Shown: one piece after another, positions 21,158-60,134 of the stretch
Position numbering within the stretch: position 1 is the stretch's first letter
How the letters are laid out: each line of letters starts with the position of its first letter
Source of the DNA: Bacillota bacterium
Lineage (GTDB): Bacteria; Bacillota; Sulfobacillia; Sulfobacillales; JAIMBI01
Reading direction: 5' to 3'
Assembly: GCA_021846565.1 (NCBI GenBank)
Contig: JAJZWS010000005.1
Coordinates: 10,321 to 74,320, forward strand
Length of the DNA stretch: 64,000 bases
Made by a program: the position numbers and the translations under genes
Notes under the pieces: generated by a model
What the model saw: only the letters and a program-made list of their open reading frames with translations
What the model was told of the DNA's origin: nothing
Databases searched by the model: none

Positions 21158-21186
21158 TTGACACGCAGGGTCGCGCAGGGTAGCAT
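21158..21186 (+). promoter_or_regulatory. sigmaA promoter of Ehr operon 1
   Basis: TTGACA-N17-TAGCAT directly upstream of the riboswitch. Confidence 0.75.
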
Positions 21187-21202
21187 GCCAACGCAACCAA
21201 TA

Positions 21203-21264
21203 CGGCGATGGAGACCGCCGGGGCTACGCCCGAACTGCCAGAGCATCTGGCTAATGACTCCTAC
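21203..21264 (+). ncRNA. fluoride (crcB) riboswitch aptamer 1
   Basis: CGGCG-ATGGAGAC-CGCCG (P1), GCCAGA-GCA-TCTGGC (P2), TAATGACTCCTAC; GGAG/CTCC pseudoknot; matches the consensus GGCGAUGGnGUUCGCC...GCUAAUGACnCCUAC. Confidence 0.9.
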
Positions 21265-21303
21265 CGTGCACGTGACGTTGACGTGGCGGTAGGGGTATTT
21301 TTT
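21258..21303 (+). terminator. riboswitch expression-platform terminator 1
   Basis: CTCCTACCG...CGGTAGGGG followed by TATTTTTT; the 5' arm overlaps the aptamer pseudoknot strand (ON-switch layout). Confidence 0.82.
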
Positions 21304-21329
21304 GTGCCGAAGCGGGAGAGGAGTTGCAC

Positions 21330-22262
21330 ATGCCAATCGTGGCACAGGGGCTGCAAGTGTTGTTTGTTCTGGCATTCGCGCCACTTTTAAAGGGCATCAT
21401 GGATCGGGTGAAGGCTCGCGGCATGCGGCGACAAGGCCCTCCGTGGGTTCAGCCCTATCGGAATCTGTGGAAGTGGGCTCACAAGTCCATCGTGCGCACC
21501 CCATACACCACGGGCCTCGCGGACTGGGTTCCCGTGTTATATTTCACGGCGCCCCTGATAGTGACTCTGTTAATCCCGGTGTTGACCACCATGCCGCTGC
21601 CGCTCGCGTTTATGGCGGACATTTTGGGCGGCGGACTCATTTTGGCCGGAGCCGGCTTTCTGCTGTTGTTCTACGCCCTGGACTCGGGCAGCGCCTACGC
21701 GGCCATTGGGGTGAGCCGCATCCGGCTCATCGGCACCCTGGGGGAACCACTGACGGTGATGGCCGTGTTCACGGCCGCCGCCGTGGGACACTCGACGATT
21801 CCCTACACGGTCAATCAGGCGTTCTTCGCCCAAAGTTTCTTCGCCCCGGTGCACCTGTTGGTGCTCCTGGCCTGGTTGCTGCTGCTGCTGGCCGAGGCCG
21901 GCCGCCTACCGGTGGACAACCCCGATTCGTCCCAGGAGCTGTCGCTCATCGACCCCAACCGGGTGTTTGAAGCCAGCGGCCCGGATCTGGCGCTGCTGGA
22001 GTGGGGCGGGTGGATGAAGTACACCGTGCTGTCCATCATTCTGGTGAACGTGTTGGGCTGGCCCGTGGGATTGGCGGCGATGCTGACGCCCGGCGCGCTG
22101 GCGCTGGCGATTCTGACGACGGCCGCCAAGCTGGTGGTGGTGGGGCTCGTGGTGGTGGGCATTGAGCTGTCTTTCGCCAAGCTCCGGCTGATGCGCATTG
22201 CGGAGTACCTGACGCTCTCGGTGGCCTTGGCCGCGCTGGCGGCCTTGGCCGCCGGGCTCTAG
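21330..22262 (+). CDS. Ehr complex 1 membrane subunit, HyfC/HycD (NuoH-like)
   Basis: RRQGPPWVQPYRNLWK, AEAGRLPVDNP, E.SG..LALLEW. Confidence 0.88.
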   Translation: MPIVAQGLQVLFVLAFAPLLKGIMDRVKARGMRRQGPPWVQPYRNLWKWAHKSIVRTPYTTGLADWVPVLYFTAPLIVTLLIPVLTTMPLPLAFMADILGGGLILAGAGFLLLFYALDSGSAYAAIGVSRIRLIGTLGEPLTVMAVFTAAAVGHSTIPYTVNQAFFAQSFFAPVHLLVLLAWLLLLLAEAGRLPVDNPDSSQELSLIDPNRVFEASGPDLALLEWGGWMKYTVLSIILVNVLGWPVGLAAMLTPGALALAILTTAAKLVVVGLVVVGIELSFAKLRLMRIAEYLTLSVALAALAALAAGL

Positions 22263-22314
22263 CGGCGGATTGGCGCCGATCCGGTTGCAGACTTTGTGTT
22301 GAAGGAGGAGCGCC

Positions 22315-22935
22315 ATGCCGGTGTGGTTGGTGCATCCCACGCTGATGGCCGAAGCGGGGGCGGCGGTGGTGTGGCTCGCGGCGAATCTCATTGCGCTGGC
22401 CCGCCGGCCCGCCACGGCCATCAGTTGGTATGCGATCGCGGGACTGGTCGAGGGGGGGCTGGCCGTGTTATGGGGGCTGGCCCACCACCAGGCCGCCTGG
22501 TGGAGCATGGGGATTTTGTGGATGGCCGCCAAGGGCGTCGTGGTGCCGCGGTGGCTGTTGGCGGCGCTGCCGCCGGACCGGTGGGAACTGGTCGCGTCCG
22601 GCACCCCGCGCCTGCTGCTGGGCAGCGCGGTGCTGGTGGTGGTGACCGTGGCCGCCGGAGGATCGGCGGGGGTGGCGGTGGCGGCGCTGTTGACCCCGTT
22701 TTGGCTTTTGACCCAGCGGCGCGAGCTGTGGGTGGCCGCCATCCTGCTGATGGAGGCGGAAGTGGCGCTCGGCTTTGTCGCGCTGGGCGCGCACGTCGCA
22801 CCGGCGACGGTCGATGTCCTGGACGTGGCCGAGGTCCTGTGGGCCGGGGCCCTGCTGGCGTGGCTGCTGCGGCGGGGCCGGCTGGATTGGGATGAGCCGA
22901 TTCACACGACGGCGCTTCGGCGTCTGAGGGGGTAG
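22315..22935 (+). CDS. Ehr complex 1 small membrane subunit, HyfE-like
   Basis: Hydrophobic; KGVVVPRWL and C-terminal TTALRRLRG typical of HyfE; same position as the HyfE of operon 2. Confidence 0.7.
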   Translation: MPVWLVHPTLMAEAGAAVVWLAANLIALARRPATAISWYAIAGLVEGGLAVLWGLAHHQAAWWSMGILWMAAKGVVVPRWLLAALPPDRWELVASGTPRLLLGSAVLVVVTVAAGGSAGVAVAALLTPFWLLTQRRELWVAAILLMEAEVALGFVALGAHVAPATVDVLDVAEVLWAGALLAWLLRRGRLDWDEPIHTTALRRLRG

Positions 22936-22940
22936 GCGAC

Positions 22941-24269
22941 GTGGCGGTATGGGTTCCCATCGCATGGGTGATCGGGATGGGAGCATTGGCGTCCGGGCGG
23001 GGCCGCTGGCCACTGGTGGCGGCCGCCGGCACGGCCTTGGCGGCGGCACTGGACGTGTCGCGCGCGCTGGCGCACCCGGCCTGGACGGCCGAATATGGGG
23101 CGTTGGTCCTGGTGCTGGCCACCTTTGCGCTCATCATGTCGCCCGCCTATTTCCTGGGGGCAGCGGTTCACCACCCGTGGCCCGCGGCCCGCGAGCGCTG
23201 GTACTACGCTTGGCTCGGGGTGTTTGCGGCGGCGCTCCTGGCGCTGGCGGCGCCGTGGCCGCTGGTGGATCTGTGGGTGGCCGTGGAAGCCACGACGCTG
23301 TCATCGGTGCTGCTGGTGGCCCTGCCCCCCGGCGCCGGGCCGTTTGAGGCTTCGTGGAAGTACGTGACGCTGGCCATGCTGGGCGGACTGCTGGCGTTGG
23401 GCGGCATCCTGCTGATGCAAAGTGGCGCGGCGGCCGACGTGGCCGTGGGGGCGCTGTTGATGCTGGTGGGCTTTGGGATCAAGGCGGGCTTGGTGCCGTT
23501 CCACACCTGGCTGCCGGACGCGCATGCCGAGGCGCCCGCCCCGGTGTCGGGCCTGCTGTCAGGGGCCGAGCTGGGGGGGATTCTTATCGTGGCGTGGCGC
23601 GGACTCACGCTGGCTCAGGGGCTCCTGCACCAGCACTGGCCACTTCTGGCGCTTTTGGCGCTGGGGCTCCTGTCCCTGCTGGTGGGGGTGGCTTTGATAT
23701 CTCGCCAGCACAATCTGAAGCGTCTGTTGGCGTACTCGTCCGTCGAGCACATGGGGGTCATTGCGGTGGGGCTGGCTTTTGGGGGGCCGGCTCTCTTAGG
23801 GGCGTTTCTGCACGTGTTTACCCACGGGTTGGCCAAAAGCCAGGCGTTTTATCTCTCCGGGTCGGTGCAGGCGCACTACGGGACCGTGGACACGCGGCAC
23901 ATTCACGGCCTGGGCCGCCGACTCCCGTGGACGGCCGGGGGTCTCATGGTGGCCATCGGAGCTCTGGCCGGCCTGCCGCCGCTGGGGCCGTTTTGGAGTG
24001 AGTGGCTGGTCATTCAGGGAGGGTTGGCGGACAAGGGGATGGCGGTGTGGGCGGCTCTGACGGCGCTGCTGCTGGCTGGCGGCTTCGTGGCGCTCATGTA
24101 CCGGCTGCCGCGGCTCTGGCAGGGCTCTCGGCCTCCGGTGCCCCCCGAGGGGGCGGGGCCGCCGGAGTCCAAATTCCTTTCCCTGCCTGTACTGTTGATG
24201 TCCAGCCTCACGATGTCGGCCGGGGTGGTCGTGCCCTGGGTGTTCCTGGGGTTGGGACGGGGGGTGTAG
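22941..24269 (+). CDS. Ehr complex 1 antiporter-like subunit, HyfF-like
   Basis: WVAVEATTL, EASWKY, GFGIKAGLVPFHTWLPDAHAEAPAPVS, KRLLAYSSVEHMG. Confidence 0.88.
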   Translation: MAVWVPIAWVIGMGALASGRGRWPLVAAAGTALAAALDVSRALAHPAWTAEYGALVLVLATFALIMSPAYFLGAAVHHPWPAARERWYYAWLGVFAAALLALAAPWPLVDLWVAVEATTLSSVLLVALPPGAGPFEASWKYVTLAMLGGLLALGGILLMQSGAAADVAVGALLMLVGFGIKAGLVPFHTWLPDAHAEAPAPVSGLLSGAELGGILIVAWRGLTLAQGLLHQHWPLLALLALGLLSLLVGVALISRQHNLKRLLAYSSVEHMGVIAVGLAFGGPALLGAFLHVFTHGLAKSQAFYLSGSVQAHYGTVDTRHIHGLGRRLPWTAGGLMVAIGALAGLPPLGPFWSEWLVIQGGLADKGMAVWAALTALLLAGGFVALMYRLPRLWQGSRPPVPPEGAGPPESKFLSLPVLLMSSLTMSAGVVVPWVFLGLGRGV

Positions 24270-24270
24270 C

Positions 24271-25653
24271 ATGGCCGACCGCATGATCGTGGGAATTCCG
24301 GAGTCGCACGCAACCGATCCGCTGTCCGATGCGCTGGGACAGATGGCGCGCGACGGCGCCGCCCTGCTGCACGCGTTCCTGAGCGCGCGCGGGCTCACGT
24401 TGGTCATCGCACCGGCAGCCCGGGGCGCGCCGGAGGAGATGGTCCTGGGGCCCGGTCCGTTCTCGCGGCCCACTCGCGCGGGCCATCAGCTGTTTTGGGG
24501 GATCGAGCACACGCTGCCCCCGATCGTGTGGCATCATGCCAGCCGGCGGCGCCCCGTACGGGGGCGGGGACTGCACCTCATGCCGCTCGGCCCGGTGCGC
24601 GGTGACGTGTCCGAGTCGCTCGCGTACCAGCTGGTGGTGCTGGGCGACGAGATTCACCAGGTGCGGCTGCGTGCCGGGTACAAGCGGCGGCACGTGGCCG
24701 AGGCCATGACGGGGGCGGATGTGTCGGCCGCCCTCCAGGTGGCCGAGCGGGTGACGGGGACCTCGCGGGTCGCGCACGCCCTGGCGTTTTCCCTGGCGGT
24801 GGAACAGGCGCTGGGCATCGGGGTGTCTGCCGCCGACCAAGAGGCCCGGGTGGTGCTGGCCGAGTTGGAGCGCATCACGAGCCACGTAGGGGATCTGGCG
24901 CTGTTGGCGGCGTCGACGGGCACCGTGGCGGCCGCTGCCGACTGGTTTCGCCTCAAAGAGACCCTGCTCAGGTTTCAGGCGGCGCTCACCGGGCACCGGT
25001 ATCTCATGGGGGTGGTGGGGCCGGGTGGGCACCGCCGGCCGCTGTCCCGCGAGCTGTCGGCGCTGCCCGCGCTGCTGGCCGCGGTCCGGGCGCAGGTGGA
25101 CGCCGTCGCCAGTGCGCTGGACGTCACCAACAGCTATCTGGATCGGCTGCACGGTGCGGGCCGCCTGCCCGAATCCCCGGACGGCGGGGTGTACTGGACG
25201 GGGTTTGTGGGCAAAAGTGCCGGACTCATGCGGGACACGCGCTGGGATGCCCCGTATGCCGCGTATGGGGCCCTCACGGCCGGTCTGGCGCCCGTGTCCG
25301 TCAATCGGCCCGATGCTTACGGCCGCGCCTGGGTGCGTCTGGGCGAGGTGCGCCAGAGCTTGCAGATGCTGTCGCGGGTGATGGATTTTAGGTCTCCGGT
25401 CGAGACCGCGGCGCCCCCCGAGAGGCAGGGTGGCGACCGGGGGGTGGGCTACGGGATGGTGGAGGCGCCCCGCGGCCGCCTGTGCTACCGCCTAGCGGTG
25501 CACGCGGGGCGCGTTCGCGCGGCGTCGCTCACCACGCCGTCCCAACTCAACTGGCCCGCGGTGCCGCTGGCGTTGGAGCAGCGAAACATCCTGCAGGATT
25601 TTCCCATCATTGACGCGAGCTTCTCCCTGGCTGTGTCCGCGTTGGACTTGTAG
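24271..25653 (+). CDS. Ehr complex 1 large subunit (HycE/HyfG/NuoD-like, no Ni-binding cysteines)
   Basis: GPVRGDVSES, ERVTGTSRVAHALAF, AELERITSH, VEAPRG, QDFPIIDASFSLAVSALDL; L1/L2 CxxC motifs absent. Confidence 0.88.
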   Translation: MADRMIVGIPESHATDPLSDALGQMARDGAALLHAFLSARGLTLVIAPAARGAPEEMVLGPGPFSRPTRAGHQLFWGIEHTLPPIVWHHASRRRPVRGRGLHLMPLGPVRGDVSESLAYQLVVLGDEIHQVRLRAGYKRRHVAEAMTGADVSAALQVAERVTGTSRVAHALAFSLAVEQALGIGVSAADQEARVVLAELERITSHVGDLALLAASTGTVAAAADWFRLKETLLRFQAALTGHRYLMGVVGPGGHRRPLSRELSALPALLAAVRAQVDAVASALDVTNSYLDRLHGAGRLPESPDGGVYWTGFVGKSAGLMRDTRWDAPYAAYGALTAGLAPVSVNRPDAYGRAWVRLGEVRQSLQMLSRVMDFRSPVETAAPPERQGGDRGVGYGMVEAPRGRLCYRLAVHAGRVRAASLTTPSQLNWPAVPLALEQRNILQDFPIIDASFSLAVSALDL

Positions 25654-25708
25654 CGCCCACACAGACGCAACGCCCGGGAGAAGTTGCCACACGAGAAGGG
25701 AGCGCCGC

Positions 25709-26245
25709 ATGTTTTATCGACGATGGCTTATGCACTATCTGAAGCGGCCGGTGGTGACCAGCTTTCCGGGTCAAGTCGACCCGGCCGCTCCCGCGCGCGC
25801 CCCGCTGGAGCCAGCCGCCCATCCGCTGTTTCGCCAATCGCTCACCCTGCGTCAGGTGGATGGGGGGTCGTGCAACGGCTGCGAGGCGGAGATCCAGCTG
25901 CTGGCGAGCCCGGTCTACGATCTGTCGCGCTTTGGCTTCGCGCTCTCTCCGTCGCCCCGCCATGCGGACCTGCTGCTCGTGACCGGCGTCATCACCGAGG
26001 CGATGGTGCCCGTCATCCGCACCGCCTACGACGCCATGCCTGAACCCCGCCTGGTGGTGGCGGTGGGCGCGTGTGCCACCGAGGACGGCGGCGGGTTTCA
26101 CGGCATGCCGGGGGTGGTGGGGCGGCTGGACGGGGTGGTCCCCGTGGCCGTGCGCATTCCCGGATGCCCACCCAGCCCCAACGACCTCCTGGCGGGACTG
26201 CTGGCAGCGGTCGGGCGCCCCGCACGCACCGCGGAGGCCCGCTGA
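25709..26245 (+). CDS. Ehr complex 1 small Fe-S subunit (HycG/HyfI/NuoB-like)
   Basis: DGGSCNGCEAEI, SPRHADLLLVTG, VGACA, IPGCPP. Confidence 0.9.
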   Translation: MFYRRWLMHYLKRPVVTSFPGQVDPAAPARAPLEPAAHPLFRQSLTLRQVDGGSCNGCEAEIQLLASPVYDLSRFGFALSPSPRHADLLLVTGVITEAMVPVIRTAYDAMPEPRLVVAVGACATEDGGGFHGMPGVVGRLDGVVPVAVRIPGCPPSPNDLLAGLLAAVGRPARTAEAR

Positions 26246-28230
26246 TGCTCGCGGCCGCGCTCTTGGTGCTGCTGACCGCGATTGCCGCCGGGCTCGGCCT
26301 GCTGCACGCGGGTCGGCCTCGGTCGCGCGCCGGGGCGCGCCTGGCGGTTGGCACCTGGTTCGCGCTGGCCATGGCGGGCGCGGTAGGGCTAATTTGGCGC
26401 AGTGGCACGCTGCGTCTGGTCACGCCGGTGGGGTCGGTGGGATGGCACGTGGATCCGTGGGTGGCTGGCTGGCTCATGGTCGTGGGGCTGATGGGCGGTT
26501 TCGCCGTGAGTGCGCGGGCCGCGGCCGGGGCGGTGCCGGGAGAAATGATCGCGGTCAGCTGGCTGGCGGTGGGCGTGGCCGGCATCTTAACTGCTGCCGA
26601 TGCCCTGACCCTGGTGCTGGCATGGGGTCTTTTGACCGCGTCCGCCTATGGGGCGGTGGTGGCCGGGGCGCACCGGGCACGGGTGCTGGCCGCGGGCTGG
26701 GTGCTCCTGGTGATGAATGAGCTGGGCACCGCCGCGCTCATCGTCGGCGCCATCCTGCTGACAACCCAAGTTGCGGTCGGCCCGGTGGCGGACGTCGCCG
26801 CGCTGTTGGGTCTGTTGGGCCTAGGTGCGAAGACGGGGCTGTTCCCCTTTCAGGTATGGCTGCCGGTGGCGGAACCCGAGGCGCCTGGGGTGGTGGCCGG
26901 TGTGTTGTCCGGGGTGACCACGGCGGTGGTGATGGTGGCACTGGGTCAGTGGTACGGCTGGACGCATCCGGACCTGACCGTGGGCTGGATCACGGTGGGG
27001 CTCGGGGTGGTGGGCGGCGCCCTGGGGGCGGTTCACGCGGCCCTGGACCATGACTTGAAGCGGGTGTTGGCGTACTCCACCGTCGAGTGGATGGGACTCG
27101 CCACCGCGCTGCTGGGCCTCTCCGTCGTCTTTCTCCGCACCGGTGCCCCCGCCCCCGCGGGTGTGGCGCTGGCCGCGTTTTATGCCGTGGCCCTCATGCA
27201 TCTAGGCGCCAAGACGGCGGCCTTTGGCATTGCCGGGTGGGTAGAGCAGGCGGGCGCGGGGCGGCGGCTGGATGCCTTGGGAGGGCTGTATCGCCGAGCC
27301 GGGTGGCTCGCGCGGTGGGCGCTTTTGGCCGTGATTGCCCTGATGGCGCTGCCGCCCACCGGAGGGTATTTGGCGGAGTGGCTATCCCTGGAATCCGTCT
27401 TCATGGAAAGCGCCGGGCCGCTTAAGCCGCCGCTTCTGGTCGTGGGCATCCTGCTGGCGCTTTTGGCCGCCACGGGCGCCACCGCCATGCTGCGCTGGTA
27501 TGGCGCCGTATTTCTGGGGCCTCCGCGCGGCCGCAAGCTGCCGCGCCGTCCCGACGCGGGGTCCGTCCGCCTGGTGGGGGCCGGTGCGGTGCTGGCCGCC
27601 GTGGCGGGTGTGGGGGTCGGGTGGTGGCTGCCATTTGCGGCGCGCTGGGCGCCCCCGCTCGTGGGTCAGCCCGTGCTGCGGCACCTGGTGGCCCGGACGT
27701 TTGGTGCGCATCCGGCCCCGGCGCTGCTGGTATCCCTGGGCGGGCGCGTGTTTGCCGGGCTGCCTGGCGCGCCGGGCGCCATCGTGTTTCCGGGTCCGGG
27801 ATTCACGGCCATCGCCCCTTGGTATCTGCTGTGGTTCGGCGGTGCGATGGTGCTCGGCGTGGCGTGGGCGCGCCGCGCGTGGATGCGGCGGCACCAACTG
27901 ACCGTACGCCGGGAGGCGCCTTGGTCCGGCGGGTCCCACTATCGGCGGGAACACGCGTGGACCGCCACCGCGCTGACGCACCCCTTGCGGCTGGCCTTTG
28001 CCCCCGTGATTCGTCTCACGCGCCGCCGGCAGGAGGGGGCGGTGGTGCGTGTGGACACGGACATCGCCGATCGCCTGCTGGAGCAGGGGATGCGGCCCGT
28101 GCAGCGATGGGTCGGGCGCATAGCCGATGCGCTCGCCCAAACCGAGTCGGGGCTGGTGAGCCACTATGTCTTGTATGTGCTGGCGGCTCTTGCGGTGGGG
28201 CTTTTGGCGCTCGGCCTCCACGCCGGCTGA
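26245..28230 (+). CDS. Ehr complex 1 antiporter-like subunit, HyfB-like
   Basis: KTGLFPFQVWLP, LKRVLAYSTVEWMG, LPPTGGYLAEW; ATG overlaps the upstream TGA. Confidence 0.85.
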   Translation: MLAAALLVLLTAIAAGLGLLHAGRPRSRAGARLAVGTWFALAMAGAVGLIWRSGTLRLVTPVGSVGWHVDPWVAGWLMVVGLMGGFAVSARAAAGAVPGEMIAVSWLAVGVAGILTAADALTLVLAWGLLTASAYGAVVAGAHRARVLAAGWVLLVMNELGTAALIVGAILLTTQVAVGPVADVAALLGLLGLGAKTGLFPFQVWLPVAEPEAPGVVAGVLSGVTTAVVMVALGQWYGWTHPDLTVGWITVGLGVVGGALGAVHAALDHDLKRVLAYSTVEWMGLATALLGLSVVFLRTGAPAPAGVALAAFYAVALMHLGAKTAAFGIAGWVEQAGAGRRLDALGGLYRRAGWLARWALLAVIALMALPPTGGYLAEWLSLESVFMESAGPLKPPLLVVGILLALLAATGATAMLRWYGAVFLGPPRGRKLPRRPDAGSVRLVGAGAVLAAVAGVGVGWWLPFAARWAPPLVGQPVLRHLVARTFGAHPAPALLVSLGGRVFAGLPGAPGAIVFPGPGFTAIAPWYLLWFGGAMVLGVAWARRAWMRRHQLTVRREAPWSGGSHYRREHAWTATALTHPLRLAFAPVIRLTRRRQEGAVVRVDTDIADRLLEQGMRPVQRWVGRIADALAQTESGLVSHYVLYVLAALAVGLLALGLHAG

Positions 28231-28285
28231 CCTCAAGGGGTCCTGCACGGAGCGATGACCAAGACGTGAAGAGGACCGAAGCGCG

Positions 28286-28316
28286 GACGGGCGGCCACAG
28301 CGCCCGTCTTTTGCTT
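28286..28316 (+). terminator. intrinsic terminator ending Ehr operon 1
   Basis: GACGGGCG-GCCACAG-CGCCCGTC-TTTTGCTT. Confidence 0.65.
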
Positions 28317-37172: not shown

Positions 37173-37332
37173 CGGAGAATCCGTCGTGACCGCCTCCCTC
37201 CTTAGCCAAACTGGGTCGCGACATCCCGGGAAGTCGCGAGAATATTGTCAGCATAAGCGGGTTCGGCGGGATAGCCAAGCCCGCGTGTCGAATTCAGGGG
37301 ACCGAGGTTCCCAGGACGCGGAGGGATCCATC

Positions 37333-52295: not shown

Positions 52296-54404
52296 TCAGG
52301 TGATGCGGATCAGCAGCATAGCGACCAAGAGCGCCACGAAGGCGTAGCCCACGTACGCGTTGACACTGCCGCGATGCATCCGCGCGAACAGGTGGGCCAG
52401 CGCTCGCGCCCCACGGATGGAGGGATCCACGATGAGGCGGTCCACCACATAGCGCGAGCGATCTTCGCGCTGGACGCTGACCCGAAAGTGCTCGGCCACC
52501 ACCTCCTCGCGATCCACCGTCTGTCCGGGGCTCAGCACGGCGCGAAACACCACCCAAATGGGGCGGGCCACGCCGGTGGCCGTGTAGGTGAGGCCCGCAT
52601 CCACCGTGCGGGCACCACCGAGCCAGGGCCGTCCCCGGCGCACCCGCCCGTGACCCAAAAGCCTGGCCAGGGCAAACGCCAAGGCGAGCGCGATGCCGAT
52701 GGCAAGGGCCAGATAGGTGGGCGACATCGCAAACACGACGCCCGCGTGCAGGCGGGTGCTGGGATGCATGAACACCACACCGGGCGCCGGCAGCACGTGC
52801 TGCCCGAGGGCCGCCCCCAGGGGATAGAACGCGGACGCGAGCGCGGGCGGGAGTGTGGCCGGCTGAAAGAACGTGGGGATGAAGGCCGCAAGGTCATGGC
52901 TCTGGGCCAGACTGGCCGCTACCCGAGCCAATCCGGTCGCCACGTACGTGGGGGCAATGCCTAAGCCCAGTGCCAGCGCCGCCAACAATCCCATGGCGAT
53001 CCGCTGAGTGGCCGTCACGTCCCGGGCCTGCGCGGCGTGGTCGGATCGGTGCCGTCCCAGAAACGTCATGCCGTAGAATCGAATGAAAGCCGTGGCGGCC
53101 AGGCCCGCCGTCAAAGCCACGGTGACGCCGGCCAGCGCGAACGCTGTCTCCAGGGCCGGGTTGGCCATGGCGACGCTGCGCAGGAGGCTCTGCAGCAGCA
53201 GCCATTCACTGGCAAACCCGTTAAACGGGGGAATGGCCGCGATGGCCATCGTGCCCGCCAACAGAAACACCCCGGTCCACTTGAGCCGTCGCGCCAGTCC
53301 TCCGAGATGGTCCATGTTAAGTTCGTCGGTCGCCTGGTCGATGGCGCCGGCACCCAAAAAGAGCAGGGTTTTGTACACCGAGTGATTCAGCAGCTGATAC
53401 AGGGCCGCGATCCACGCCAGGAGGCCCAGGACCGGCAGGCCCACCCCATCGAACGTCATGGCGGCCCCAATCCCGATGGTGACCAGGCCCATGTTCTCGA
53501 TCGAGCTATGAGCCAACAGGCGCTTGATGTGCGTGTCGGTGGCCGCATACAGAATCCCCAAAAACGCGGTCACAACGCCAATGCCCAGCACGATCACGCC
53601 GGCGGCCGGGCTTGGCGGCGGCAATAGCAGCACGTTGGTCAGAATGATGCCGTACAAACCCAGATTGAGGATAGCCCCCGACAAGACGGCCGACGCATGG
53701 GCCGGAGCGGCGGGATGGGCGCGGGGCAGCCAGCTCATCGCGGGAAACAGGCCCGCCTTGACGCCAAAGCCCAGGAACGAGAGGCCGAAGACGGCCCAGC
53801 GCACGCCGACCGTCAGCCGGTCGGGCCCCGCGGCCGCAATCGCGGAAAACCCGATGTTGTGGGCGGCCAGCACCAAAGGCAGCCATGCGGCCAGCACCAT
53901 GAGGAAGCCCAGTTCACTGGCGCCCAGCATGGCGTAGGCGGCCCGGGGATTTTCGGGCGTCTCGTGGTCAAACACCACCGTGATGTACGACAGCACCGAC
54001 ATCAGCTCCCAGGCAATGAGAAAGGTGACGACATCGCCGGCCAACAGAATCAGCGCAATGGAACCAAGCAGGAGAGCCAGCGTGATGCCGAGCGGCCGCT
54101 GGTCGTATCGGTCCTGGTATCGGGCCAGGTAGCCCGGGGAAAAGAGATAGACGGCCAGGAACACGACCGCCGTCACCATCAGCAGGAATCCGCCCAGGTC
54201 CGTGAAGGTAAGCCGCAGCATGCCCCAACCGGCGAGCGGCCACAGCAGCCACTCTTGTCCGGGATGCGTGAGAACGGTCCCGGCCAGCGCGAGCAGCGCC
54301 AGCGCCTGGGCCACCCCCGCCGGTGCGGTCCACCGACCGCGCCGGGAGAGCCCGGCCGCCGCCGCCACCAGGGTGAGCCCGAAAAACAACGGCAGCGCGA
54401 TCAT
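52296..54404 (-). CDS. Ehr complex 2 antiporter-like subunit, HyfB-like
   Basis: FLIAWELMS, GFGVKAGLFPAMSWLPRAHPAAP, KRLLAHSSIENMG, PPFNGFASEW. Confidence 0.9.
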   Translation of the reverse strand: MIALPLFFGLTLVAAAAGLSRRGRWTAPAGVAQALALLALAGTVLTHPGQEWLLWPLAGWGMLRLTFTDLGGFLLMVTAVVFLAVYLFSPGYLARYQDRYDQRPLGITLALLLGSIALILLAGDVVTFLIAWELMSVLSYITVVFDHETPENPRAAYAMLGASELGFLMVLAAWLPLVLAAHNIGFSAIAAAGPDRLTVGVRWAVFGLSFLGFGVKAGLFPAMSWLPRAHPAAPAHASAVLSGAILNLGLYGIILTNVLLLPPPSPAAGVIVLGIGVVTAFLGILYAATDTHIKRLLAHSSIENMGLVTIGIGAAMTFDGVGLPVLGLLAWIAALYQLLNHSVYKTLLFLGAGAIDQATDELNMDHLGGLARRLKWTGVFLLAGTMAIAAIPPFNGFASEWLLLQSLLRSVAMANPALETAFALAGVTVALTAGLAATAFIRFYGMTFLGRHRSDHAAQARDVTATQRIAMGLLAALALGLGIAPTYVATGLARVAASLAQSHDLAAFIPTFFQPATLPPALASAFYPLGAALGQHVLPAPGVVFMHPSTRLHAGVVFAMSPTYLALAIGIALALAFALARLLGHGRVRRGRPWLGGARTVDAGLTYTATGVARPIWVVFRAVLSPGQTVDREEVVAEHFRVSVQREDRSRYVVDRLIVDPSIRGARALAHLFARMHRGSVNAYVGYAFVALLVAMLLIRIT

Positions 54405-55114
54405 GACTCAGCCACCTCCCGGGTTTCCCGGCTCAAGCCCGTGACCAGCTCCAGCGCATGCAGGATCGCCAGCGGCGGCGGGGGACACCCCGGGACGGTC
54501 ACGTCCACCGGCACCACGCGACTGGCGCCGCCCATCACCGCAAAGCTGTCGGCAAACAAGCCGCCGTTCAGCGCGCACACGCCGACGGCCACCACCCGCT
54601 TGGGGTCGGGCATCGCCGCGTACGTCTCCTCCAGCGCTACGCGCATGCCGACGGTTACGGGCCCCACAACCAAGAGGACGTCGGCATCACGAGGAGTTGG
54701 GGAGACGTAGATGCCATAACGGTGCAGGCTGTAGACGGGGCCCAGCAGCTGCCGCAGTTCGCTCAGGCAGCCGCCGCAGTCGCCGGCGTCCACGATGCGC
54801 ACATGGATGGACCGCTGAAAGCGGTGAGGCAGTGGCGGCGCAGCGGCCTGAGCCCACCGGTAGTCGTTCTGCCAGTGAACCGGGGCTTTGGGAGGTTGAC
54901 AGCGCATGCAGTGGATGCAGTGGTCAAAGTCCACGGCGACGCCCGCATCGCGTCCTGCCAGTGCGCCGACCGGACAGATGTTGGCGTCGAAGCGGTCTCG
55001 CGCCGTCACGGCCGTCGTGGTGGGTCGACCCGGCGTGACCCCCGAGGGCAGTCGGACAGCCCCCGGTCGGAGTGTGCGGACACCAGTCTTGAGTCCTTCC
55101 CAGAACCAGGGCAT
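54401..55114 (-). CDS. Ehr complex 2 small Fe-S subunit with N-terminal ferredoxin-like domain
   Basis: ICPVGA...CIHCMRC, then DAGDCGGC, PRDADVLLVVG, VGVCA, PGCPP. Confidence 0.9.
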   Translation of the reverse strand: MPWFWEGLKTGVRTLRPGAVRLPSGVTPGRPTTTAVTARDRFDANICPVGALAGRDAGVAVDFDHCIHCMRCQPPKAPVHWQNDYRWAQAAAPPLPHRFQRSIHVRIVDAGDCGGCLSELRQLLGPVYSLHRYGIYVSPTPRDADVLLVVGPVTVGMRVALEETYAAMPDPKRVVAVGVCALNGGLFADSFAVMGGASRVVPVDVTVPGCPPPPLAILHALELVTGLSRETREVAES

Positions 55115-55166: not shown

Positions 55167-56714
55167 CTACCGATCCGCGTCGGCCACCGACAAACCCAAG
55201 GTGCTGACGATAATGGGAAAGTCCTGAAAGGCGAAGTCGCGCACGGCGTCAGCCAGGCCGTGCCAGTTCAGAAAGGCCGGTGTCATGATGTGGCATCGGT
55301 CAACGGTTCCGGCGCTCCCGATCCGCACCCAGTACGCGAGCGCGCCCGATGGCGCCTCCACGGCGGCCAATCCCACTCCCGGGACCACCGGGACGGGAGT
55401 CTGGACCGGGCCGGCGGGCAGGGAGGCGGCGCACCGCTGGATCAGGTCCACCGACGCCGCCACTTCCCGGCGAAACACACGGAACCGCGCGTACCCGTCG
55501 CCCTCCGACTCGATGACCGGCGTGACGGGATGCTGGTCGTACGCGGCATACGGGTGCCAGCAGCGCACGTCGGCCGGGGCCCCAGACGCTCGGCCCACCG
55601 GTCCCACCAAACCCAGGGTGGCGGCCCGTGGGGGAGGCAGGATGCCCACCGCTTCCAGACGGTCCAAAAAGCTGTTGTCAAACGTTAGCCGATGGCAGAC
55701 CGCCTGGACCGCCGCCACCGCCTCGACGCCGGCCTCGGCCAGGGCGTGGAGCGCGTCGTCTCCGGGATCCCGGGAGAGGCCACCCAGGGCCACCAGACCA
55801 AACAGGTAGCGATGCCCCAGGTACCGCGCCGACTGCTGCAGCAGGCGCTCCTCCACGGCGGCCAGGAGATTGGCGGGGACGGAGAGGCCGGTGGATTCCA
55901 CGATGCCGGCGAGCGTGCCCACGTGGCTTCGCAGGCGCTCCCATTCGGCCAGCACGGTTCGGAGGGCACGCGCCCGGGGTGGGACGACGGCCGCGGCCAC
56001 GGCCTCGACGGCTTGTGCGAAGGCGAGGCCATGGGCAAAGGCCTGCATGCCGTTTACGCGCTCGGCAACCAGCACCGCCCGGTTGGGCGTTTGCCGTTCC
56101 ATGAGCTTCTCGAGTCCCCGGTACTTGTAAAACAGACGCACGTGCGCGTGCATGATTTCCTCGCCCACGGTCTCCAACAGGAACCGCACGGACTCCTGGG
56201 CCCCCGAAAACACGGGGCCGACCGGCATCACGAAGCGACCGGGCGCCTGCACGATGCGGGGCGGTTCGTACGGGTCCCGACCGCCGCCGTGGGCGGGAGG
56301 CTCCGGCCGCATGCGCATCGGTGCCAGACGTTCCGCCCAATCTTCATCGTGCAGGATGAAGTCGCCCAGTTGAGGGTGTCCCGCAAAATTGACGCCAAAC
56401 AGGTCCTCAGCCTCCCGCTCGGCCCAGTCGGCGGCAAATACGGTGGGCGTAATGCTGGGCACGACCGCCCCGTCCATCGCGACGTCCACCAAAAGCCACC
56501 GCGCTTCAGGACCCATCCACACATACTGGAGGTGCGGCGGGGGCGACCCCGTCGGGTGTTCCACCACCAGCCCGATGAAGAGGGGATGGTTCTCTGCCAT
56601 GAGCCGCCGCACCGTGTCCGGCAACGTGGCTTGGGAGGTGCTGACCATTTGCAGGGGCTCGCGGCCGGCGGGCGCGTCCGGCGCGCCCACTCTCGGCGCA
56701 TCCGTGCGGTTCAT
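55167..56714 (-). CDS. Ehr complex 2 large subunit (NuoC+NuoD-like, no Ni-binding cysteines)
   Basis: ADWAEREAEDLFG (NuoC-like), FYKYRGLEKL, ERVNGMQAFAHGLAF, VEAPSG, QDFPIIVSTLGLSVADADR. Confidence 0.9.
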   Translation of the reverse strand: MNRTDAPRVGAPDAPAGREPLQMVSTSQATLPDTVRRLMAENHPLFIGLVVEHPTGSPPPHLQYVWMGPEARWLLVDVAMDGAVVPSITPTVFAADWAEREAEDLFGVNFAGHPQLGDFILHDEDWAERLAPMRMRPEPPAHGGGRDPYEPPRIVQAPGRFVMPVGPVFSGAQESVRFLLETVGEEIMHAHVRLFYKYRGLEKLMERQTPNRAVLVAERVNGMQAFAHGLAFAQAVEAVAAAVVPPRARALRTVLAEWERLRSHVGTLAGIVESTGLSVPANLLAAVEERLLQQSARYLGHRYLFGLVALGGLSRDPGDDALHALAEAGVEAVAAVQAVCHRLTFDNSFLDRLEAVGILPPPRAATLGLVGPVGRASGAPADVRCWHPYAAYDQHPVTPVIESEGDGYARFRVFRREVAASVDLIQRCAASLPAGPVQTPVPVVPGVGLAAVEAPSGALAYWVRIGSAGTVDRCHIMTPAFLNWHGLADAVRDFAFQDFPIIVSTLGLSVADADR

Positions 56715-56794: not shown

Positions 56795-58240
56795 TCAGCG
56801 CAAGGTGGCGGCGGCCATGCCCAACAAGTGATAAAGTGGCAGGGGAAGGTAGATCCCCAGCACGACCACGGGAACAATCCCCACGAGCATCGCGGCCGCT
56901 ACCGACCGGGGGAGCCGTACTGGCCCGTGCGTGGGGTGGCCAAATATCATGCCCCCCGTTCGGCGCAGAATCCCCAGAAAGGCAATGGCCAGGAACACCA
57001 GCAGCAGCGCGAGCACCAAGTAATCCTGCGCGGTGGCGGCCGCACGGAAAATCGTCAGCTCGCTGAGAAACACCGCAAACGGGGGCGCCCCCGCAATGGC
57101 CAAGGCCCCCACGAACAGGGCCGCCGCCGCCACCGGAGCGCTTCGCAAGAGACCGCGGACGTCCCCGATGGTGCGGGTGCCGGTCGCCAACAGCACACTG
57201 CCGCTGCCATAAAAGGCGAGCGACTTGGTGAGGCCGTGGGTCGTCAGTTGGTAGACGCAGGCCAGCGCCCCCAATGGCCCCAAGCCCAGACACAACAGCA
57301 GCATGCCCATGTGTTCCACCGTTGAAAAGGCAAAGAGGCGCTTGTAGTCATGCACCTGGAGCAGCAGGAAGGCCGCCGTGCCCACCGACACCAGCCCCAC
57401 GACCAGAGCCCACGACTGCGGCGACAATCCCGGCACGGCCGTGAACACTGGCCAAAGCCGCAGGATAACGTACAGCACCGTGCTCACCTCGACGCCCGAC
57501 AGCAAGGCGCAGACCGGGGTGGGTGCTTGGGAGTGGGCGTCCGGCAGCCAGGTGTGCATCGGCACTAGGCCCACTTTGGCACCAAAGCCAATCAGGATAA
57601 GCACAAACGCCAGCGCCACGACCCCCGCCGGCATGTGCGGTGCCGTCCGAATCAGCGCGCTCCACGTCTGAACCGTCACGTGGTTGCGCGTCAAGCCCCA
57701 CAGCAGTAGGAAAATGCCGAACGCGGCCACCGTGGCCCCCATAATCGTGATGACCGCGTACTTCCATGCGGCCTCCAACGCTTCGCGGGTGTTGGCGAAG
57801 CTCACGAGAAAGATGGACAGGACGGTCGTGAGCTCGATGGCCACCCAGGTAAGTACGGGCTGCAGCAGCAGCGGCACCACAAACAGCGACGCTTGAAAGA
57901 GATTGAGGTTAAGAAAGTACCGCCGCTGACGCGCCGGGTCCCCCGGGGCGAGGTGAGGAATGTACCCCCAGGAGTAGGCGGCCGCGGTGAGGCCCACAAA
58001 GCCCTGCAACACCAGGATCAGGGCCGCAAGCGCGTTGACGCCGATCCATCCGGGCAGCAGCACCCCGCCGACGTGGCGCGTCACGTCGCTCGCGACCGCC
58101 AGCGACGCGGCAAACGCCAGCAGGGCGGTTGCCAACGTGCTGAGCTTCGCCACCCGGACGTTCTTCACCACCAGGCAGAGCGCGGCGGACACCAGCGGGG
58201 CGGCCGGAATCACCCCCAGCAGCATGGCCGAAAGCCTCAT
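56795..58240 (-). CDS. Ehr complex 2 antiporter-like subunit, HyfF-like
   Basis: WVAIELTT, EAAWKY, GFGAKVGLVPMHTWLPDAHSQAP, YKRLFAFSTVEHMG. Confidence 0.9.
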   Translation of the reverse strand: MRLSAMLLGVIPAAPLVSAALCLVVKNVRVAKLSTLATALLAFAASLAVASDVTRHVGGVLLPGWIGVNALAALILVLQGFVGLTAAAYSWGYIPHLAPGDPARQRRYFLNLNLFQASLFVVPLLLQPVLTWVAIELTTVLSIFLVSFANTREALEAAWKYAVITIMGATVAAFGIFLLLWGLTRNHVTVQTWSALIRTAPHMPAGVVALAFVLILIGFGAKVGLVPMHTWLPDAHSQAPTPVCALLSGVEVSTVLYVILRLWPVFTAVPGLSPQSWALVVGLVSVGTAAFLLLQVHDYKRLFAFSTVEHMGMLLLCLGLGPLGALACVYQLTTHGLTKSLAFYGSGSVLLATGTRTIGDVRGLLRSAPVAAAALFVGALAIAGAPPFAVFLSELTIFRAAATAQDYLVLALLLVFLAIAFLGILRRTGGMIFGHPTHGPVRLPRSVAAAMLVGIVPVVVLGIYLPLPLYHLLGMAAATLR

Positions 58241-58902
58241 CGCGGCACCCCCTCGCCCAGCTGCTGCAGGCTGCTCACTTCCGTGCTGCCGAGGTGCTGC
58301 GCGATGGTGCGCGTCAGGATGGCGACCACCAGCACCACCATCACCCCTTCGAGCCCCGCGGCGGCTTCGACGATGGCCGACGAGGTGGTGATGGCCACGC
58401 CGGCAAAGAAGACGCCGTTATCTATGGCCATGAGGCTCAGCACCTGTGCCACCGCCTCGCGGCGAATGGCGAGCGTGTACACGCCAATCAGGAGCGCCGC
58501 TAATCCAAGCGGCAGGTTCACTGCCGCCCGCGCCGCAGGGGGCCCCAGCAGTGGGGCCACCAGAAAAAACGCCAACACCGTCAAGCCCAGCATGAGCAGC
58601 AGGGACACCGGCACGTTGACGGCCGACTCGATTTCCCGTCGGGCACGCAGCTCCTGGCCCAGGGTGCGCGTGAGGACGCCCGGAATGACAATGACTTTGG
58701 CCGCGACGGTGATGAGGGCCACCACCGCCAGCTCGGTCGAGTGGTGCAGCAGCGCGAGCAGCACAGTCGACAGCACCAGAAGCAGCGACTGTCCCACGAA
58801 CGCGCGCAGCACGGACTGAATCTGCCGAGACACCATGAGCAAGAACGTCATCAGAATAAACAGGGCGCCTACGACGGTATTTAGACTTGCCAGTGCCGCC
58901 AC
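58237..58902 (-). CDS. Ehr complex 2 membrane subunit, HyfE-like
   Basis: KVIVIPGVL, QVLSLMAIDNGVF, C-terminal STEVSSLQQLGE; GTG start with GGGAGG SD. Confidence 0.85.
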   Translation of the reverse strand: MAALASLNTVVGALFILMTFLLMVSRQIQSVLRAFVGQSLLLVLSTVLLALLHHSTELAVVALITVAAKVIVIPGVLTRTLGQELRARREIESAVNVPVSLLLMLGLTVLAFFLVAPLLGPPAARAAVNLPLGLAALLIGVYTLAIRREAVAQVLSLMAIDNGVFFAGVAITTSSAIVEAAAGLEGVMVVLVVAILTRTIAQHLGSTEVSSLQQLGEGVPR

Positions 58903-59001
58903 GTTGTTGCCTCCCACGTCGTTAAAACCTTCGCCAGCGCCACATATCGTCCGAAGACCACGGGACGGCAAAACCGGGGAGCGGACCTCAAAGCAGAGAG
59001 C

Positions 59002-59952
59002 TCAAAGATGAAACGGCTGCACCATCATGGCCAGCACCGCCACCACAAAGGCCAACCCTAAGAAATTCTCGATGCGAAACAACCGCAGCTTCGCCAGCGA
59101 TGTTTCGATGCCCGCCACCACGGCGAGGAACACCACGAGCTTCAGCGAAACCAGCAGGACGCCGAGTGCCACGGCGCCAGCCGCCGGCGAGGTGGCCAGG
59201 CCCCATGGCGTGACCAGGACGTTCAGGAGGACGAGGCTCAGCACCATCAGTTTGATGTGGCCGCCCCACTTGACCAGCGCCGCCGAGCGCCCGGAAAACT
59301 CGAGCGTTTTGGCCTCATCGATCATGGCCAGTTCAAAATGGCCGGACGGGTTGTCGACCGGGATCCGGCCCGTCTCCGCCAGGATGATCATGACGAAGGC
59401 GGCGACAATCAGCAGATGGGTCGGCGACACCAGCGCAGCCGTTGACGTCACCCAGTGAGCCTGCACCACATATGGGATGGTGGAATTGGCCGCAAAGGAC
59501 ACCGAGAAAAACACGATCATGAAGATGGGCTCCACCAGCGAGCTGACCATCCGGGTTCGGCTGGTCCCCATGGGACCGTACGGATTGCCTCCGTCAATGG
59601 CGGCCAGGGTCAGAAAGAAGCCACCCAGCCCCAGGATGAAGCCGGCCGCCACCATGTCGCCCATGAACGCCCAGAACAGCGGGAAGTCCGTGAGGGCGGG
59701 AATCAGCATCGTCACCAGCAGCGGCGCCACAAAGTACATGAACGGCGCGAACCGGAAGATCCAGGTGGAATCTTCTGGGATCACCTCATCTTTGTGAAAG
59801 AGCTTGCCGAGGTCAAAGTACGGCTGCCAGATGCTGGGCCCCAATCGGCCTTGCAAGCGCTCCTCGAAGCGGTTGAGTATGCCGCGAAACAAAGGAGCGG
59901 CCGCCAGGACGAAGGCGACCTGGACAAGGTTGAGCACGAGGCCCTGGATCAT
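59002..59952 (-). CDS. Ehr complex 2 membrane subunit, HyfC/HycD (NuoH-like)
   Basis: GRLGPSIWQPYFDLGKL, AETGRIPVDNP, ELAMIDEA, ETSLAKLRLFR. Confidence 0.92.
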   Translation of the reverse strand: MIQGLVLNLVQVAFVLAAAPLFRGILNRFEERLQGRLGPSIWQPYFDLGKLFHKDEVIPEDSTWIFRFAPFMYFVAPLLVTMLIPALTDFPLFWAFMGDMVAAGFILGLGGFFLTLAAIDGGNPYGPMGTSRTRMVSSLVEPIFMIVFFSVSFAANSTIPYVVQAHWVTSTAALVSPTHLLIVAAFVMIILAETGRIPVDNPSGHFELAMIDEAKTLEFSGRSAALVKWGGHIKLMVLSLVLLNVLVTPWGLATSPAAGAVALGVLLVSLKLVVFLAVVAGIETSLAKLRLFRIENFLGLAFVVAVLAMMVQPFHL

Positions 59953-59983
59953 CTCCACCCGCCCCCCGTCCCAAAGTCCTCCG

Positions 59984-60028
59984 CAAAACAAAATGACCCC
60001 AGCAGCTTTAGTACTGCCAGGAGTCATT
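59984..60028 (-). terminator. riboswitch expression-platform terminator 2
   Basis: AATGACTCCTGGCAG-TACTAAAG-CTGCTGGGGTCATT-TTGTTTTG on the - strand, overlapping the aptamer 3' end. Confidence 0.8.
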
Positions 60029-60080
60029 AACCGCTGTGCGGTAATTTTGGACGATTGTCCGCGGCGGATTCCATCGCCGC
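60018..60080 (-). ncRNA. fluoride (crcB) riboswitch aptamer 2
   Basis: Minus strand GCGGCG-ATGGAATC-CGCCGC (P1), ACCGC-ACA-GCGGT (P2), TAATGACTCCTG; one mismatch in the pseudoknot. Confidence 0.85.
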
Positions 60081-60106
60081 TCAGCCTCCATATCGCGTCT
60101 CCGAAA

Positions 60107-60134
60107 AGTTTAGCACGACAGAACTCCGTGTCAA
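60107..60134 (-). promoter_or_regulatory. sigmaA promoter of Ehr operon 2
   Basis: TTGACA-N16-TAAACT with extended TG motif, on the - strand upstream of the aptamer. Confidence 0.65.

Follow-up and report, generated by a model that had tools for sequence, protein, structure and literature searches.

Two fluoride-riboswitch-led Ehr operons in a Sulfobacillales genome without a recognisable fluoride exporter, and a possible role of Ehr complexes under fluoride stress

We analysed a stretch of 64,000 nucleotides (nt; hereafter, the window) from a Bacillota bacterium (lineage Bacteria; Bacillota; Sulfobacillia; Sulfobacillales; JAIMBI01; assembly GCA_021846565.1, contig JAJZWS010000005.1, positions 10,321 to 74,320 of the forward strand). 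The window carries two six-gene operons for hydrogenase-like membrane complexes, termed Ehr-1 and Ehr-2, each located behind a predicted fluoride riboswitch (Table 1). As an earlier note on this DNA had described, the two operons share one gene order, and the Pfam analysis bore this out: HyfC-HyfE-HyfF-large-small-HyfB was identical behind both leaders. In both operons, NADHdh was identified in the HyfC/NuoH-like protein, Proton_antipo_M in the HyfF- and HyfB-like proteins, Complex1_49kDa/NiFeSe_Hases in the large subunit, and Oxidored_q6 in the small subunit. The Ehr-1 and Ehr-2 paralogs were 31–45% identical. The HyfE identity of the second gene is a weak assignment; for that of Ehr-1 the Pfam scan gave no match, and the gene was hence named HyfE-like from its position and from its relatives, in which tblastn found it to be kept. 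In addition, the listed open reading frame (ORF) of Ehr-1 HyfB overlaps the small-subunit gene, so its true start probably lies later.

A search with the Rfam model of the crcB motif (RF01734; gathering score, 34 bits; full covariance model, positions 1–64) gave exactly two matches in the window, one in each Ehr leader and each spanning model positions 1–64. The score of aptamer 2 (34.4 bits) is marginal by Rfam's gathering score; the orthologous leaders, located at the same position in three genomes of the same genus, scored 37.2, 35.5, and 32.4 bits. In each leader, the 5′ arm of a predicted terminator overlaps the 3′ end of the aptamer, and the sequence ACUCCU(AC/GG) is common to both. The terminator hairpins, each followed by a U-run, were calculated as −25.6 kcal/mol (centroid; z −3.7) for leader 1 and −23.5 kcal/mol (z −4.0) for leader 2. 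Near-consensus promoter sites were present in both leaders where the earlier note had placed them, and its description of crcB-type ON-switch leaders agrees with the Rfam scores (45 and 34.4 bits) and with the overlap of terminator and aptamer. As judged from sequence and fold, both leaders are of the usual fluoride ON-switch design, in which a terminator competes with the 3′ pseudoknot strand of the aptamer. The riboswitches of Ehr operons in the order contain an extra G+C-rich hairpin between P1 and P3 (alignment A2, 31 riboswitches), which lies at 21220–21234 and 60063–60048 in the window and is mostly missing from riboswitches ahead of MutS-domain, crcB, or exchanger genes.

Table 1 Features of the two Ehr operons and their leaders (positions in the window).
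Feature	Position	Strand	Remarks
Sigma-70-type promoter-like site, operon 1	21158-21186	+	TTGACA-17-TAGCAT; consensus match only
Fluoride riboswitch aptamer 1	21195-21270	+	RF01734, 45 bits, E 3e-09
Putative intrinsic terminator, leader 1	21257-21304	+	5′ arm is aptamer 3′ ACUCCUACC, then UAUUUUUU; fold and sequence
Ehr-1 HyfC/NuoH-like membrane subunit	21330-22262	+	PF00146, E 1.5e-21; ATG after GGAGAGGAG stretch
Ehr-1 second gene, HyfE-like by position	22315-22935	+	Start uncertain, GTG 22296 alternative
Ehr-1 HyfF-like antiporter-like subunit	22941-24269	+	PF00361, E 8.7e-42
Ehr-1 large subunit (NuoD/HycE-like)	24271-25653	+	Without NuoC-like domain and NiFe cysteines
Ehr-1 small subunit (NuoB-like)	25709-26245	+	Four Cys of N2-type cluster; ORF open from 25610
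Ehr-1 HyfB-like antiporter-like subunit	26071-28230	+	PF00361, E 4.5e-20
Terminator-like hairpin 3′ of operon 1	28285-28309	+	Pattern match only
Ehr-2 HyfB-like antiporter-like subunit	52296-54404	-	PF00361, E 6.3e-39; HycC, 7z0s_C, E 4.6e-45
Ehr-2 small subunit (NuoB-like)	54401-55114	-	N-terminal extension with conserved 4-Cys motif
Ehr-2 large subunit	55167-56714	-	Fused NuoC-like and NuoD/HycE-like; without NiFe cysteines
Ehr-2 HyfF-like antiporter-like subunit	56795-58240	-	PF00361, E 1.3e-47
Ehr-2 HyfE-like subunit	58237-58971	-	Weak NuoK-like PF00420, E 7.6e-4, sub-threshold; syntenic in 70/80 loci
Ehr-2 HyfC/NuoH-like subunit	59002-59952	-	PF00146, E 9.6e-32; best solved relative HycD, 7z0s_D, E 4.3e-33
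Putative intrinsic terminator, leader 2	59984-60028	-	5′ arm AUGACUCCUGGCAG overlapping aptamer 3′ end, then UUUUGUUUUG; fold and sequence
Fluoride riboswitch aptamer 2	60011-60087	-	RF01734, 34.4 bits, E 9.2e-06
Sigma-70-type promoter-like site, operon 2	60134-60107	-	TTGACA-16-TAAACT, with TG; consensus match only

The linkage between riboswitch and Ehr cassette was then followed in 61 related genomes, 48 of which gave RF01734 matches (up to 15 in one genome). Rows with at least 48% identity over the full length were counted as Ehr type 2 (12 loci), and those with 33–39% identity starting at query residue 109–158 as Ehr type 1 (40 loci); 17 rows of a type-3 paralog, the NuoD-like rows, G057:C437, and the fragment G043:C43 were left out of both counts. 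RF01734 was found 3.2–3.5 kb upstream in 11 of the 12 type-2 loci, the twelfth (L042) being matched by the model R1 described below, and in 35 of the 40 type-1 loci. In total, 46 of 52 Ehr loci had an upstream riboswitch on the same strand. The type-1 loci without an upstream match were G029:C222, which starts 731 nt from a contig end, G002:C155, G012:C1, G036:C121, and G045:C48. In the same 61 genomes, a riboswitch was located within 1.5 kb upstream of only 7 of 37 crcB loci (two CrcB fragments below the cut-off, G025:C2:2350232 and G037:C62, being left out), and upstream of none of the 17 type-3 loci, as counted by eye.

A wider survey drew on a one-genome-per-species collection, in which 484 relatives of the type-2 large subunit were confirmed; the best 80 loci of these 484, bearing 12 phylum labels, were examined. 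Because about half of the Rfam matches escaped a plain regular expression for the aptamer core, a covariance model, R1, built from 31 Rfam riboswitch matches was used instead; R1 includes both leaders of the window, so their R1 scores are not independent. In 72/80 loci, R1 matched the same strand ahead of the large-subunit gene, at a distance of 3128–4481 nt (median 3320); these are 72 of the 74 loci with enough upstream DNA to be usable, the six others lacking it. In locus L095 the match lies 5017 nt upstream of the large-subunit gene, and L079, in which the Ehr genes stand directly behind another gene, gave no match even with the filters off. When 10 of the loci were checked with RF01734 at the Rfam gathering score, 9 were confirmed at the same coordinates. 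The order C-E-F-L-S-B was observed in 70/80 loci, the remaining 10 being cut by contig ends or having a mis-placed HyfB match. A quick maximum-likelihood tree, with long-branch warnings and an insecure root, split type 1 (29 rows) from type 2 (81 rows) with Shimodaira–Hasegawa-like approximate likelihood ratio (SH-aLRT) values of 99 and 97; type 1 was found only in Sulfobacillus-like Firmicutes. This near-obligate linkage across phyla, which is tighter than that of crcB and missing from the type-3 paralog, suggests that fluoride stress is the condition for which the cassette exists. The earlier note had proposed a co-occurrence survey and had suggested, from two paralogs alone, that a fluoride response is the function of this Ehr clade; the survey as run here (72/74 usable loci, and 46/52 in related genomes) gives that idea far stronger backing. 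Identical or near-identical type-2 large subunits were also observed under different phylum labels (L078-L081, Deltaproteobacteria and Binataceae; L084-L085, Verrucomicrobiia and Nitrospirota), and either the cassette has been transferred horizontally in the pairs L078/L081 and L084/L085 or the bins are mislabelled.

The NiFe site of hydrogenases, whose motifs are given as RxCGxCxxxH and DPCxxCxxH/R in the available text of PMC4378227, is missing from both large subunits. At the first two NiFe Cys sites of Escherichia coli HycE, the window proteins read ERVTGTSRVAH (Ehr-1) and ERVNGMQAFAH (Ehr-2), and the C-termini of both are Cys-free. Compared with 7z0s, the NiFe cysteines of Ehr-2 are replaced by Asn and Gln in the aligned N-terminal pair and by Ser and Asp when the alignment is extended beyond its printed end. 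Among 81 type-2 large subunits (the 80 loci and the window), the four NiFe positions hold Cys in 6, 1, 1, and 0 sequences, and the replacing residues are Ala/Ser, Thr/Ser (72/81), Ser (79/81), and Glu/Asp (81/81), respectively. In type 1 (n = 29), the N-terminal Cys are missing from every large subunit, and a lone C-terminal Cys is present in one. The alignment to Thermus Nqo4 (2fug_4) placed Gln and Gly at two sites that we take to be its quinone-binding His and Tyr. No HypD was found in the assembly (95.7% complete), HypD being the hyp gene that was searched for, and the PF00374-like matches in the whole genome were confined to NuoD and to a stretch of 67 residues in the Ehr-2 large subunit. 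Furthermore, Pfam detected no formate dehydrogenase, HycB-like, NuoE, NuoF, or NuoG gene in either operon. Since the large subunits lack the NiFe cysteines, we concluded from these alignments that both complexes are Ehr complexes, and not group 4 [NiFe] hydrogenases or formate hydrogenlyases; the Ehr assignment made earlier thus holds for both large subunits and family-wide.

The third Ehr-like paralog of the order (type 3) has the gene order B-C-F-L-S and the motif RxCGxD...ELCxxC. Of the four NiFe cysteines, three remain in its large subunit (RICGAD/RVCGAD, ELCYSC), as in G013:C2:3247275-3248594 (L149) and G018:C1:1522292-1523638 (L150).

The iron-sulphur (FeS) ligands of the small subunit were compared in 78 type-2 sequences. 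Three Cys of the proximal cluster are invariant (78/78), and the positions of the N-terminal four-Cys motif, whose similarity to Fer4 is weak and sub-threshold, hold Cys in 78, 78, 74, and 78 of the 78. The fourth N2-type ligand in the window corresponds to C210 of the protein encoded at 54401–55114. In type 1, the NuoC-like domain and the N-terminal Cys motif are missing and the four NuoB-type Cys are present. One [4Fe-4S] cluster would be expected in type 1 and two in type 2.

For the membrane arm, the ion-path columns were taken from the alignments of HyfF and HyfB to MbhH (6cfw_H) and HycC (7z0s_C), and we presume that these columns lie in transmembrane helices (TM) 5, 7, and 12. Both HyfF and HyfB of the window keep the TM5 Glu, TM7 Lys, and TM12 Lys, which were conserved family-wide in 75/77, 77/77, and 77/77 HyfF sequences and in 70/71, 71/71, and 71/71 HyfB sequences, respectively. 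HyfC is the best-conserved subunit, with approximately 60% identity between phyla. On the face of these sequences, the membrane arm looks functional.

The earlier note had recognised no known fluoride exporter in the window, which was borne out here and extends, for CrcB and CLC-F-type CLC, to the assembly (134 contigs, 95.67% complete). CrcB (PF02537) gave 0 matches in the whole assembly and was found in 0/8 genomes of the window's family (84–97% complete), the control being positive in 11/14 genomes. The assembly has two CLC genes, both on contigs other than that of the window, whose motifs are canonical (GSGGS...GREGP...GGVFAP and GTGGP...GAEGP...GGVLAP) and do not agree with the CLC-F signatures GNNLI/GMGLI, GREGT/V, and GEVTP listed in the available text of PMC11139923. 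Similarly, the 10 full-length CLC genes in six genomes of the family have canonical GSGGS/GREGP or GTGGP/GAEGP motifs; G001 has CLC fragments only, and G004 has no CLC. The two Ehr operons are the only membrane systems located behind fluoride riboswitches in the window's genome. An exception among the family CLCs is a short protein of G005 without CBS domains (C48:40564-41965, minus strand; L141), encoded approximately 300 nt downstream of Ehr-1 HyfB. Its atypical motifs, GHGTE, GKEGP, and GGIITP, make it neither a canonical CLC nor a textbook CLC-F.

The neighbours of the cassette were counted within approximately 4 kb in the 74 loci, with one representative per cluster scanned with Pfam. The recurrent ones were DUF6062 (19/74), CrcB (17/74), DUF190 (17/74), and enolase (12/74); enolase, crcB, DUF190, and extra riboswitches accompany the cassette in fluoride islands, and riboswitches often precede these neighbours. 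Genes behind riboswitches were identified by tblastn and the longest downstream ORF; neighbours in the regulon include enolase, CrcB, DUF190, MutS-domain proteins, NUDIX, and a Na+/H+ exchanger (L007). A six-frame family search found no DUF190 in the window's genome; a six-frame search found no DUF6062 there either, a blank that says little because its control was positive in no genome. DUF6062, the commonest neighbour, was represented by 23 cluster members, 15 of which lie downstream in the same orientation (e.g., L084:8169-9671 and L103:9387-10208), and in L103 its gene stands directly behind a riboswitch of its own. This unstudied family seems to belong to the fluoride regulon.

Other candidate members of the regulon were observed in the window's genome and its relatives. 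A third riboswitch-like match in the window's own genome (C81:15743-15803, minus strand; L003:1501-1561) scored 29.7 bits, below the gathering score of 34, just upstream of a gene for a dynamin-family GTPase; it is probably real, because the same pairing recurs in G006 (L120) and G055 (L034). In one genus of the family, a riboswitch precedes a three-gene operon (G004:C95:24492-27725, L119; G006:C47, L121; G007:C92, L123) that encodes a 306-aa protein without a Pfam match, a DUF1537-type kinase (SBD_N/NBD_C), and a PdxA-family dehydrogenase; the first two proteins gave no tblastn match in the window's genome (G000). In the family that contains Sulfobacillus, G036 and G029 have 9–15 riboswitch matches per genome, seven of them on G036:C67, and their fluoride regulon is unusually large.

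Two candidates beside the operons were rejected. The gene following operon 1 (28510–30807, plus strand), which encodes a 765-aa fusion of MFS transporter and cytidylate-kinase-like parts, could have been a seventh operon gene and an exporter, but was set aside because a terminator-like hairpin and a promoter-like site separate it from HyfB; among 12 type-1 regions compared, it is present at the same place only in G003. A 159-aa ORF after operon 2 (51753–52232), with no Pfam match and patchy similarity in one relative, was not counted as a gene. Between the operons lie ordinary genes encoding an EAL-GAF signalling protein, formiminotransferase, amidohydrolases, asparaginase II, an NAD(P)H-hydrate repair enzyme, and alanine racemase; these intervening genes, including 34833–37172 (minus strand), 37186–39524 (plus strand), and 45860–48111 (plus strand), have no visible link to fluoride.

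The window's DNA was detected, at half or more of the sampled words, in six runs from two studies, labelled as metagenomes of mine drainage and of mine tailings, and one record in the order bears the title Sulfobacillus benefaciens; therefore, an acidophilic setting is plausible. Two runs labelled as RNA-Seq reached a share of 0.08, with a content like that of DNA contigs of an approximately 90–95% alike relative, and no RNA run was found to contain the locus.

Ehr complexes have been described before. According to the portions of the papers available to us, Sulfobacillus genomes were reported in 2014 to contain six-gene Ehr clusters without NiFe motifs and with unknown function (PMC4378227), and Ehr was later described in Geobacter (PMC7894505), comammox Nitrospira (PMC10284858), and Margulisbacteria (PMC6349859). 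These portions (2014–2023) describe the function of Ehr as unknown, as never studied, or as awaiting experimental tests, in line with the earlier note, which had presented the system as uncharacterised. The Ehr of that literature resembles the operons studied here in its six syntenic genes, in its NuoH, NuoL, HyfE, and HyfB homology, and in its missing RxCGxCxxxH and DPCxxCxxH/R motifs; in contrast, fluoride and riboswitches are not mentioned in the available portions, whereas both operons of the window and nearly all their relatives are riboswitch-led. In the available parts of the riboswitch literature (PMC11139923, PMC8752731), 'formate hydrogen lyase' is listed among the commonest fluoride-riboswitch genes, citing Baker 2012, and a fermentative shift is invoked; Na+/H+ antiporters are the next-commonest associated class after exporters (PMC11139923). 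The novelty claimed in the earlier note was therefore overstated. Full-text searches, limited to the library available to us, found no paper joining Ehr with fluoride, and the supplementary gene lists of Baker 2012 may already name the operons. The window is thus an added case of a known, uncharacterised Ehr kind, and its interest comes from how far the pattern generalises and from the lack of a recognisable exporter in the genome.

Among solved complexes, E. coli Hyc (7z0s) is the best relative of the large subunit (E 7e-51), HyfB (HycC), and HyfC (HycD), and the fused NuoC-NuoD large subunit of Hyc/Hyf is shared by Ehr-2. In contrast to Hyc/Hyf, Ehr-2 has its NiFe Cys replaced and is without HycB, HycF, an FdhF partner, or a Hyp maturation gene; the former are regulated by formate, whereas Ehr here would be regulated by fluoride. 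The antiporter-like subunits, with TM5 Glu, TM7 Lys, and TM12 Lys, are shared with the Pyrococcus membrane-bound hydrogenase (MBH; 6cfw), MBS (6u8y), and Mrp (6z16, 7qru, 7d3u), which serve as a model for redox- or gradient-driven cation translocation. Unlike MBH and MBS, Ehr has no NiFe or sulphur-reducing site and no separate NuoI-like two-cluster subunit, its small subunit instead bearing only one 4-Cys motif at the N-terminus. The NuoB, NuoD, NuoH, and NuoL/M/N-type core and the N2-type cluster motif are common to Ehr and complex I (Thermus Nqo4, 2fug_4), although Ehr has Gln and Gly at the aligned quinone sites and lacks the NADH-oxidising module. The platform of RF01734 aptamer and terminator is that of the known fluoride riboswitch regulon; however, the window's genome has the switches and no recognisable exporter, and the linkage to Ehr is far steadier than that to crcB.

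Here, we propose, as the likeliest of the readings considered and with the balance about even, that Ehr is a fluoride-induced, ion-translocating complex for the homeostasis of pH and proton-motive force. At low fluoride, the leader would fold the terminator; with fluoride bound, the aptamer pseudoknot would hold the 5′ arm of the terminator, and RNA polymerase would read into the six-gene operon. The product is a relative of Hyc/Hyf, membrane-bound hydrogenase, and complex I that has lost the NiFe site and kept the FeS ligands, with a membrane arm containing two Mrp-type antiporter-like subunits. Hydrogen fluoride (HF) diffusing into the cell would release H+ and F− in the cytoplasm, and the induced complex, by moving H+ or exchanging cations for H+, would defend cytoplasmic pH and the proton-motive force. 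Such a complex would be independent of ATP, the supply of which fluoride cuts at enolase, and would probably be driven by electrons that pass from a donor to an acceptor by way of its FeS cluster(s). The sequences themselves show the build of the riboswitches, the Ehr membership, the near-obligate linkage across phyla, and the conserved ion-path and FeS residues. What we infer is that fluoride induces the operons in vivo, which ion is moved and in which direction, and the redox drive; ion translocation is favoured because the cation path is intact and Na+/H+ exchangers belong to the same regulon, and a redox drive is suggested because the FeS ligands are kept. The earlier note had suggested an energised extrusion of F− or H+: the H+ or cation side is favoured by the antiporter residues, but the F− side has no direct support and is weakened by the frequent co-occurrence of crcB.

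Several points weigh against this proposal. No experimental work connects an Ehr complex with fluoride, pH, or the pumping of ions. If it pumped only protons, the complex would raise the cytoplasmic pH and hence increase the accumulation of F− as the anion of a weak acid, which leaves the tolerance of a CrcB-less family (0/8 genomes) unexplained, and the exit of F− from cells without Fluc or CLC-F is not accounted for. The large subunit has neither NiFe ligands nor residues matching the presumed quinone-binding His and Tyr of Nqo4, so that no electron acceptor site can be named, and neither operon encodes an electron-input subunit. In addition, the fourth Cys of the proximal cluster is present in only 31/78 type-2 small subunits (Asn in 27, Gln in 6, Asp in 4, and others in 10) while the other three are invariant, which suggests a cluster with one non-Cys ligand in most type-2 members, and the central TM8 Lys of HycC and MbhH is Asn in 70/71 HyfB sequences.

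An unlikely alternative is that Ehr works as a secondary Mrp-like antiporter, which would exchange Na+ or K+ for H+ using existing gradients, with the hydrogenase-derived peripheral arm serving a structural or regulatory role instead of supplying energy. The complex has no identifiable catalytic site and its operons encode no electron-input subunits, the fourth cluster ligand has been lost in 47/78 sequences, and neither the NuoC-like domain nor the N-terminal Cys motif survives in type 1. Among the solved relatives are subunits A and D of Mrp, and Na+/H+ exchangers occur in the same regulon (L007; also in the available text of PMC11139923). However, seven FeS Cys are kept in 74–78 of the 78 small subunits, and the peripheral-arm subunits were present in every full cassette under all 12 phylum labels, which is hard to square with a vestigial arm.

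Direct fluoride export, which we consider quite unlikely, would have Ehr itself carry F− out of the cell, or turn it back into HF for release at the pocket that once held NiFe, powered by the proton gradient or by redox; the complex would then stand in for Fluc or CLC-F in lineages such as that of the window. In keeping with this, the tie between cassette and riboswitch (72/74) is tighter than that of crcB (7/37 here) or than the riboswitch control of approximately 15% of Flucs and 30% of CLC-Fs given in the available text of PMC11139923. CrcB was found in 0/8 family genomes, the full-length family CLCs (10 genes, six genomes) are canonical, and the two Ehr operons are the only riboswitch-led membrane systems of the genome. 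A riboswitch-Ehr locus was also present in 15 of the 17 CrcB-less genomes of the order, the other two being 71% and 63% complete, although related genomes are not independent samples. The conservation of the residues that replace the NiFe cysteines (Ser 79/81, Glu/Asp 81/81, Thr/Ser 72/81) would mean that the pocket is still under selection, but type 1 has lost its conserved Glu/Asp. Furthermore, the conserved Glu and Lys are of the cation- or proton-translocating type, and we know of no anion transport by an antiporter-like module of this type. Since crcB was found within approximately 4 kb of the cassette in 17/74 loci and both occur in 21/45 genomes of the order, the complex would usually stand beside the channel rather than replace it.

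That Ehr is a true formate hydrogenlyase or [NiFe] hydrogenase of group 4, with a fermentative shift under fluoride, a reading to which database names such as 'formate hydrogenlyase subunit 5', the description of riboswitch-associated genes in the available parts of PMC11139923 and PMC8752731, and the greater abundance of Geobacter Ehr subunits with formate (available text of PMC7894505) might point, is hardly credible and is contradicted by the sequences, because the NiFe site is absent (Cys at the fourth position in 0/81 type-2 large subunits and at most one NiFe Cys in type 1), and the genome has no HypD, no PF00374-like match other than the 67-residue Ehr-2 stretch and NuoD, and no formate dehydrogenase or HycB-like gene in either operon.

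Returning to the proposed ion-translocating role, Ehr occurs in hundreds of species, and fluoride offers a simple experimental handle on this orphan branch of the complex I and hydrogenase family. The riboswitch literature knows the Ehr genes only as 'formate hydrogen lyase', and two literatures are now joined. The linkage points to an unrecognised layer of fluoride tolerance that is relevant to organofluorine bioprocessing and to the bioleaching of ores that contain fluoride. If direct F− export were true, Ehr would represent a new transport mechanism and add a third class of fluoride exporter, one that is primary-active or gradient-coupled, and this would explain the HF tolerance of a mine-water lineage without CrcB and CLC-F.

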